This document shows positions 34,381 to 34,579 of a stretch of 64,000 nt of DNA, in pieces. Location: the IMG/VR virus record IMGVR_UViG_3300036834_000231, positions 32,283 to 96,282 of that record, one strand, 5' to 3'. The position numbers and the translations under genes are program-made. Source of the stretch: a virus. Each line of letters begins with the position of its first letter. Within the stretch, counting starts at the first letter, position 1. Under the pieces are notes generated by a model, which worked only from the letters and a program-made list of their open reading frames with translations, did not search any database and was not told where the DNA came from.

Positions 34381-34579
34381 TAGAGTGGAGTGGGCTACCG
34401 ATAGGCCCAGCGCGGTCACTGCCTGGAACGCTTGCCGACCAGAGCACCTGCGAGAGGCTGGTTCGCCGGCAACGGCGAAAGAAATACTCAGGATATTCGG
34501 CGCTTGCGCCGTCAGCCCTGGGGGCTACCTTTTCATCCCGACGCCCGAGGCTCGCCCTTTTTCTGGGAAATAGCTTCGG
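34381..34579 (+). ncRNA. Putative omegaRNA/tracrRNA-like scaffold with anti-repeat
   Basis: Several hairpins (TGGGC/GCCCA; TTGCCG-ACCAG..CTGGT-CGGCAA; TCGCCG-GCAA-CGGCGA; GGCGC/GCGCC; AGCCC/GGGCT); CCCGAGGCT at 34544-34552 is complementary to the array repeat. Confidence 0.65.

Follow-up and report, generated by a model that had tools for sequence, protein, structure and literature searches.

The stretch from 34381 to 34579 is best explained as the guide-RNA scaffold of a nuclease-dead Cas12f homologue encoded by a phage, together with the first unit of the accompanying guide array. It lies in a 64,000-nt piece of the IMG/VR virus record IMGVR_UViG_3300036834_000231 (record positions 32,283-96,282), the whole of which is hereafter called the window; the parent record, that of a soil phage, is 96 kb long and 86% complete. 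The best-supported reading of this region, and on the comparative sequence evidence a probable one, is that of a nuclease-dead Cas12f (dCas12f) guide locus in which 57 shortened repeats ("mini-repeats") would obtain the second strand of their stem from a separate hairpin arm, in trans or through strand exchange. The initial annotation had described a scaffold RNA anti-repeat here. The complementarity that it pointed out is real, but the complementary segment belongs to a full-length repeat and not to the conserved scaffold. The features of the locus are these:

33088..34380, + strand: gene for the Cas12f homologue (PADLOC, structure and profile searches)
34388..34529, + strand: scaffold RNA, tracrRNA/omegaRNA-like (covariance model, compensatory changes)
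34487-34492 (CTCAGG) with 34517-34522 (CCTGGG), + strand: scaffold helix 4 (alignment columns 182-188 with 243-249)
34516..34529, + strand: canonical 5' arm CCCTGGGGGCTACC at the scaffold end (position from alignments A3 and A4)
34544..34552, + strand: the flagged "anti-repeat" CCCGAGGCT, exact complement of AGCCTCGGG, as first noted
34544..34579, + strand: full-length 36-nt hairpin repeat (length, CCC...CGG ends and arm pairing as in homologous loci)
34573..36554, + strand: mini-repeat array, 58 exact copies of GCYTCGG (3'-arm-only) and ~7 copies with one mismatch
36238..36306, + strand: 28-bp repeat-plus-spacer unit in tandem duplication (x2.5) at the distal end of the array (Tandem Repeats Finder)

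The open reading frame at 33088-34380 encodes 430 amino acids when read from the TTG at 33088; its database form has 413 amino acids, which implies a GTG start at 33139. The 430-residue protein has no match in Pfam or PHROGs, and it matches the PADLOC Cas12f model with an E-value of 3e-7. An AlphaFold2 model, built with an alignment of 33 homologues, has a pLDDT of 89, and its best Foldseek matches are AsCas12f (8j12, E 2e-17, TM ~0.55), OsCas12f and a dCas12f (9n9c, E 4e-15). Matches to TnpB are weaker than those to Cas12f (E 4e-11 and 9e-9 versus 2e-17). A profile of the family also matches OsCas12f (E 7e-11) and 9n9c (E 8e-6). The protein is thus predicted by the model to adopt a Cas12f-type fold comprising WED, REC and a RuvC core. 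When the family profile is aligned to OsCas12f, the RuvC-I aspartate is replaced by an arginine that is conserved in the family, the RuvC-II glutamate is replaced by aspartate, and the sequence stops short of the zinc ribbon and RuvC-III. Judged from this alignment, the protein appears to be C-terminally truncated and RuvC-dead, having neither an intact D-E-D triad nor a C-terminal zinc ribbon. An N-terminal zinc finger of the form CxxC...CxxC is nearly invariant in the family.

The family is large (860 clusters at 50% identity, E <=1e-3), and nearly all of its members are ~400 aa long. They are found on phage contigs, in soil metagenomes and in a few bins, mostly of Acidobacteriota/Bryobacterales; a tblastn search of GenBank phages returned no relatives. 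A comparison of 33 loci showed no conserved neighbouring gene, and no Cas1 (PF01867) was found in the 96-kb record, at 86% completeness. The window does encode a sigma-70-family factor with regions 2 and 4, at 5661-6260, 27 kb from the dCas12f gene; a sigma-70-like factor is absent from all five of the other phage records carrying the family. A partnership with a sigma factor, as in the dCas12f-sigmaE systems, was rejected because there is no conserved neighbour and the sigma-70-like reading frame is not a feature of the family.

After the stop codon, most loci of the family carry a conserved element in which the motifs CTACCGA, ACGCTTGCCG and GGATATC stand at fixed spacing. This conserved scaffold is ~140 nt long and lies on the same strand as the gene in about 80 loci. 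An alignment of 28 loci yielded a consensus structure with compensatory changes in 19 of 24 pairs, and the covariance model built from it (R1) gave 84 matches in 78 sources, that is, in nearly every locus searched. All of these matches are on the strand of the gene, and all are directly downstream of it except for one weak match (L007, 11420-11553). A single match was found in the window, at 34388-34550 (98 bits, E 1.7e-24), and it is also the only one in the 96-kb genome; the scaffold there begins 8 nt past the stop codon. Its recognizable parts are a hairpin at 34392-34408, the ACGCTTGCCG loop at 34428-34437, GATATT at 34492-34497 and a second hairpin at 34498-34511. The scaffold of the window also has an extra hairpin of ~18 nt around 34465-34476 (the GCCGGCAACGGC region), which none of the other 27 scaffolds in the alignment has. 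No Rfam family reached its gathering threshold anywhere in the window.

Across 77 aligned loci, 95.7% of the alignment cells in the scaffold helices are paired, compared with 68% after shuffling and at most 46% with slid partners, and compensatory changes occur in 22 of 24 pairs; because the 77-unit alignment was fitted to the covariance model, these figures are biased towards structure. Helix 4 is 98% paired, with compensatory changes in six of its six pairs, and in the family alignment it joins the initial six nucleotides of the 5' arm to the strand just before GAUAUC. G-U pairs are common in the scaffold helices and A-C pairs are rare, which identifies the + strand as the RNA. This assignment, which the initial annotation had made from the array, is borne out further by the scaffold matches, all of which share the strand of the gene. 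In several loci the complete scaffold is present two or three times (L006:9245-9390; L078:1942-2089; also L008, L030, L031, L018 and L089). Such multi-copy loci, in which each copy has its own hairpin and guide, are tandem single-guide genes and not arrays.

The aligned units of the family run from the scaffold through a 5' arm (CCY...), a loop of ~11 nt and a 3' arm ending in ..YNCGG(G), to the guide. In this repeat hairpin 79.5% of the cells are paired, against 68% when shuffled and at most 44% when slid, and compensatory changes are seen in 10 of the 11 pairs. Covariation across homologous loci, in the form of compensatory changes, is present in the scaffold and in the repeat hairpin alike. 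In the window, the full-length repeat is made up of a 5' arm, an apical CCC/TTTTTCT/GGG mini-hairpin (34555-34567) and the 3' arm AGCTTCGG (34572-34579). Since the segment 34544-34579 has the same 36-nt length, the same CCC...CGG ends and the same arm pairing as the homologous repeats, we regard it as a full-length repeat of the family. By this comparison the flagged 9-mer is the 5' arm belonging to the phage's single full-length repeat, outside the conserved scaffold. The sequence CCCGARGCT occurs 20 times in the window, as opposed to 1.6 +/- 1.4 times in shuffled versions, and 17 of these occurrences are minus-strand images of the array repeats. The sole + strand occurrence in the locus is that at 34544, and there is no other + strand copy of the arm in the array; the other 57 repeats are therefore mini-repeats consisting of the 3' arm only.

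A fold-back of the first repeat in cis through CCC-TTTTTCT-GGG had also been proposed. It is recovered in the minimum-energy folds of both 34381-34600 and 34510-34600, each of which contains the helix of 34545-34552 with 34572-34579, and the corresponding hairpin of the family is the one that covaries. Neither fold is significantly more stable than those of shuffled sequences (z -0.7 and -0.05, respectively), and the case for this structure thus rests on the comparison with homologous loci. The canonical arm at 34516-34529, CCCTGGGGGCTACC, is complementary to GGTAGCYTCGGG save for one bulge, and no complementary 3' arm lies at the usual distance downstream of it. It is an arm that has lost its former partner in cis. 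As an alternative structure, this arm can take part in a small stem (AGCCC/GGGCT) that is followed by ACCTTTTCAT, forming a weak terminator-like site at 34514-34539. The stem and ACCTTTTCAT could terminate a separate scaffold transcript just ahead of the flagged arm.

The array contains 58 exact copies of GCYTCGG between 34573 and 36554, all on the + strand, and the whole window contains 91 where 37.7 +/- 7 are expected. The window lacks a regular series of full-length CRISPR repeats: apart from a single 36-nt one, its 57 other copies measure 7-9 nt. What is left in these 57 mini-repeats is the terminal 7-9 nt of the 3' arm, which in a type V crRNA would be expected to serve as the 5' handle. 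When variants are counted without assuming the Y, GCCTCGG occurs 24 times, C3>T 34 times, C2>T three times and each other variant at most once; the C/U alternation at position 3 is thus the only common one, as had been stated. The two forms are interleaved and change over 22 times in the course of the array. Immediately upstream of the repeat stands A in 28 copies, G in 22, C in seven and T in one. The purine first reported for about 50 copies is therefore present in exactly 50 of 58 (background 0.55, p = 6e-7). An excess of G, G and T is seen at positions -4, -3 and -2, respectively (p = 0.013, 0.0002 and 0.002). This GGT fits the ACC end of the canonical arm and not the CG that follows the flagged arm, and the canonical arm at 34516-34529 would be a fitting explanation for the enrichment. 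The simplest reading is that the ancestral 3' arm was the 12-nt GGTAGCYTCGGG, as in locus L006, and that its 5' part is now decaying.

Spacers in the array range from 8 to 73 nt with a median of ~21 nt, and eight of 65 are shorter than 14 nt. The 28-bp tandem unit at 36238-36306 has 97% matches and a score of 131 in Tandem Repeats Finder, and the last 12 repeats are all GCTTCGG. These observations point to growth of the array by local duplication rather than by Cas1-Cas2 acquisition. The reading frames inside the array have no Pfam match. Pieces of the array are present in identical form in three other soil runs (DNA contigs), at low depth and with one SNP, in spacer 1. A search for RNA runs containing this DNA returned none.

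The energies of pairing between arms and mini-repeats bear on which arm could serve the array. The flagged arm (34544-34555) pairs with the 58 copies at a mean of -16.8 kcal/mol, compared with -9.3 +/- 4.8 for random 13-mers of the array; the corresponding values for the canonical arm (34516-34529) are -11.6 and -8.0 +/- 3.4 kcal/mol. The flagged arm is the better partner for 55 of the 58 mini-repeats. The canonical arm as sole anti-repeat was rejected, its pairing being only about one standard deviation above random. When the arms and mini-repeats of different loci are compared in a cross-table, the cognate pair is the best in both its row and its column for L003, L006 (both scaffold copies) and L078, with cognate energies of -16 to -17 kcal/mol versus -5 to -13 for non-cognate pairs. 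For the window, the flagged arm alone reaches the cognate level (-18.0 kcal/mol). The same cross-table reveals no cognate preference in L001 and L007. The mini-repeats of L003, L006 and L078 differ in sequence, yet each is complementary to the arm of its own locus over all 11-12 conserved bases.

The variation within the arrays was scored against the facing arm, with C to U opposite G and A to G opposite U counted as pair-keeping transitions. Such transitions outnumber pair-breaking ones by 34 to 4 in the window and by 28 to 4 in L006, where one dimorphic site dominates both counts and duplicated copies are not independent events. L006 has a C/T dimorphism at the homologous position and four more sites with wobble-compatible changes. 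The initial annotation had taken the C/U variation as the mark of selection on RNA pairing. That the variable base stands opposite a G holds true, and the pattern, which is the one such selection would predict, is replicated in L006; given the dominance of the single site and the shared descent of the copies, we would call it weak evidence for selection.

The homologous loci provide the context for this array. The family ranges from single scaffold-plus-guide units, which are all that many members have, through tandem scaffold copies and regular arrays to mini-repeat arrays. With single units, regular arrays and mini-arrays in one family, the earlier characterization of the locus as an intermediate between omegaRNA and tracrRNA plus CRISPR is a fair description. 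In ~25 loci the scaffold unit is the first repeat of a regular array of self-complementary 36-37-nt repeats and ~36-nt spacers; in L005 and L023 the regular array ends in units with a 3' arm only. L006, whose protein is 42% identical, has ~40 copies of GGTCACYTCGGG alongside a small number of full-length repeats, and the arm on a second scaffold copy beyond its array matches the mini-repeats equally well. L003 has 16 copies of GGAAGCTGCGGG in an array that lies upstream of the scaffold. L078 has ~10 copies of AGTGCTTCGGG, and the arm that matches them best is on a second scaffold copy ~700 nt downstream, beyond a gene. Because the arm and the array are physically separated in L003, L078 and L006, pairing in these loci would have to occur in trans. 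The loci with mini-arrays are scattered on the protein tree, and the well-supported branches of this quick tree force at least three changes.

Two guides of relatives have matches that bear on function. The first guide of the regular array in L022 (7378-7413) matches its own contig at 36 of 36 positions (5653-5688, opposite strand). This site is inside a reading frame ~150-300 nt upstream of the dCas12f gene, and the GG that precedes it is shared with the end of the repeat. The match suggests, at the level of sequence, a form of self-regulation; self-matches are tolerable only for an effector that does not cut. The first guide of L046 (6324-6359) matches a contig of another phage at 35 of 36 positions (L019:9792-9827). 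That target resembles the reverse complement of a tRNA 3' end (TGG...GGTTCGAACC), and it may be a tRNA gene or an attachment site. For the spacers of the window, no match within the 96-kb genome of the phage itself exceeds 14 nt, matches in all fetched loci are at the level of shuffled spacers, and matches in five MAGs carrying the family have E-values of 0.05 or worse. The best matches in 201 genomes of one order (E ~1e-3) span repeat-spacer boundaries and were treated as chance. Published dCas12f guides need only ~14-16 nt (PMC13472631), by which spacers of 12-34 nt were judged sufficient, and most spacers of the window, with their median of ~21 nt, are therefore long enough.

In the mechanism that we propose, the gene, scaffold and array would be carried on one joint transcript, from which the scaffold, the hairpin and the first spacer would make a natural single guide. 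For the remaining units, the handle provided by each mini-repeat would pair with a 5' arm, either in trans or by strand exchange, and the stem of the hairpin would be rebuilt. The main candidate for this arm is the segment 34544-34552, and the orphaned canonical arm at 34516-34529 could be a second one for the copies that retain GGT. C or U at position 3 of the repeat and A or G at position -1 would be tolerated because they stand opposite a G and a U. Once loaded, the protein would bind DNA without cutting it and act as a roadblock or regulator. More tentatively, one or two arms next to a single scaffold may serve all 58 guides through handles of 7-9 nt; such a three-piece guide (scaffold plus arm, handle and spacer), having arisen at least three times, is an idea that we find plausible but would stop short of calling probable.

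The complementarity of the 57 repeats could also be simply inherited from the first repeat. They would then be copies of the first 3' arm, spread by slippage or recombination, and no pairing in trans would occur: the protein or an RNase would read a single-stranded GCYUCGG handle, the arm would serve the first unit alone, and the C/U variation would be neutral. The 28-bp tandem duplication and the 12 identical distal copies of GCTTCGG do speak for growth by duplication. Further, the strongest conservation is that of the guide-proximal ..CGG, which is near-invariant throughout the family whatever the arm sequence, and in the family alignment the 5'-arm bases that face this end are occupied by scaffold helix 4. 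The want of cognate preference in L001 and L007 is likewise in keeping with inheritance. What this account does not readily explain is that the mini-repeats of L003, L006 and L078 are fully complementary to their own arms despite their differing sequences, or that most variants within the arrays are wobble-compatible. It also fits poorly with the type V-F Cas12f effectors of solved structure, in which a repeat:anti-repeat duplex is bound next to the guide. We thus consider it unlikely, albeit a serious contender, that the complementarity is inherited and nothing more.

Two other accounts would deny the mini-repeats any role as guide handles. The array might be a decaying or selfishly expanded remnant in which only the scaffold, the first repeat and the first spacer function. 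Its irregular spacer lengths (8-73 nt) and the failure to find spacer targets would suit such a remnant, as would the absence of Cas1 from the phage record, the lack of a conserved neighbouring gene in the family and the many members that work with one scaffold-plus-guide unit. A remnant would hardly be expected, however, to keep 58 exact cores amid mostly unique spacers over 2 kb, to have pieces that are identical in other soil samples, or to appear in at least three separate places of the protein tree, and 2 kb of useless DNA would be costly to a phage genome; we judge this account improbable. Alternatively, GCYTCGG might act at the level of DNA or be bound by a protein, and have nothing to do with the Cas12f-like gene, for instance as a site for recombination, packaging or an RNA sponge. 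The motif is short, strictly confined to one strand and irregularly spaced, as such a site might be. Yet the corresponding position in homologous loci is taken by regular CRISPR-like arrays, truncated units there grade into mini-repeats, and GCYTCGG is the 3' end of the family repeat and varies between loci in step with the scaffold arm. A motif unrelated to the gene is accordingly very hard to credit.

Read as a dCas12f guide locus, the locus belongs to a general kind that is already known, namely CRISPR-array-associated dCas12f with a scaffold (PMC13472631). Hoffmann et al. (Nature 2026; PMC13472631) described C-terminally truncated dCas12f proteins, most of them paired with sigma-E, and a distinct dCas12f cluster that neighbours CRISPR arrays and in which the arrays are preceded by putative guide scaffolds with covariation. 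The phage protein resembles these (structures 9n9c and 9n9m) in its predicted Cas12f fold and in a C-terminal truncation that removes part of RuvC. The RNA also has likenesses: a covarying putative scaffold lies upstream of a CRISPR-like array, short guides would suffice, the guide is predicted, from 77 aligned loci, to be at the 3' end of the scaffold, and no separate tracrRNA was detected. The present family differs in being borne by soil phages, with some members in Acidobacteriota bins, and in its N-terminal zinc finger; unlike the dCas12f-sigmaE systems, it has no sigma-E (rpoE) or HTH partner. A further difference is that the arrays of several members have collapsed to 3'-arm-only repeats of 7-12 nt, and in the literature searched we found no description of arrays reduced in this way.

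The best structural and profile matches are to the type V-F Cas12f proteins (AsCas12f, 8j12/7wju; OsCas12f, 9nzq). In these systems, too, the repeat is 5' of the spacer, and a long structured RNA with a guide-adjacent stem is needed. The phage protein differs from them in lacking the RuvC triad and the zinc ribbon, a search for Cas1 and for conserved neighbours turned up no adaptation genes, and the scaffold is fused to the first repeat instead of being encoded apart as a tracrRNA, with repeats that are themselves hairpins. With the omegaRNA/reRNA of TnpB and with TldR (Wiegand et al., bioRxiv 10.1101/2023.11.30.569447), the locus would share a single transcript in which the scaffold and a 3' guide come directly after the gene; like TldR, it has a nuclease-dead protein with a truncated RuvC that is presumed to bind DNA without cutting. 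Unlike TnpB and TldR, however, the protein is nearer to Cas12f in its modelled structure, and the scaffold starts past the stop codon without overlapping the gene. Multi-guide arrays are present, and a transposon context is absent. The closest systems also include the TranC transposon-CRISPR intermediates (structure 9jfo) and the model of "functional RNA splitting". As in the phage family, TranC loci reportedly combine a single-guide scaffold with array repeats that stem from the 3' part of that scaffold. The TranC proteins are active nucleases, whereas the effector here appears to be dead and the repeats have shrunk to a few bases.

If the three-piece reading is true, this would be the most compact natural guide array that we have found described, at ~34 nt per guide. 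One large phage dCas12f family would then preserve living steps on the way from omegaRNA to tracrRNA plus crRNA. As it stands, with one conserved scaffold throughout, the family allows the steps by which guide RNAs are proposed to have split and fused again between TnpB, Cas12f and dCas12f to be compared directly in one lineage. If the short handles work, a DNA binder of 400 aa could be programmed by dozens of guides, all encoded in 2 kb of DNA, which would make for very compact multiplexed CRISPR interference; they would also show how short a repeat can be and still suffice for a type V effector if the opposite stem strand comes from elsewhere. The loci are stand-alone protein-plus-RNA modules in soil phages. 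The guides of the relatives, one matching its own genome and another a tRNA-like site in a different phage, point to gene regulation or inter-phage conflict and not to immunity by cutting.

No tRNA genes were found in the window itself. A gene for an N6/N4 DNA methyltransferase (PF01555, E 3.5e-46) is present at 27597-28904, 4 kb upstream of the locus.
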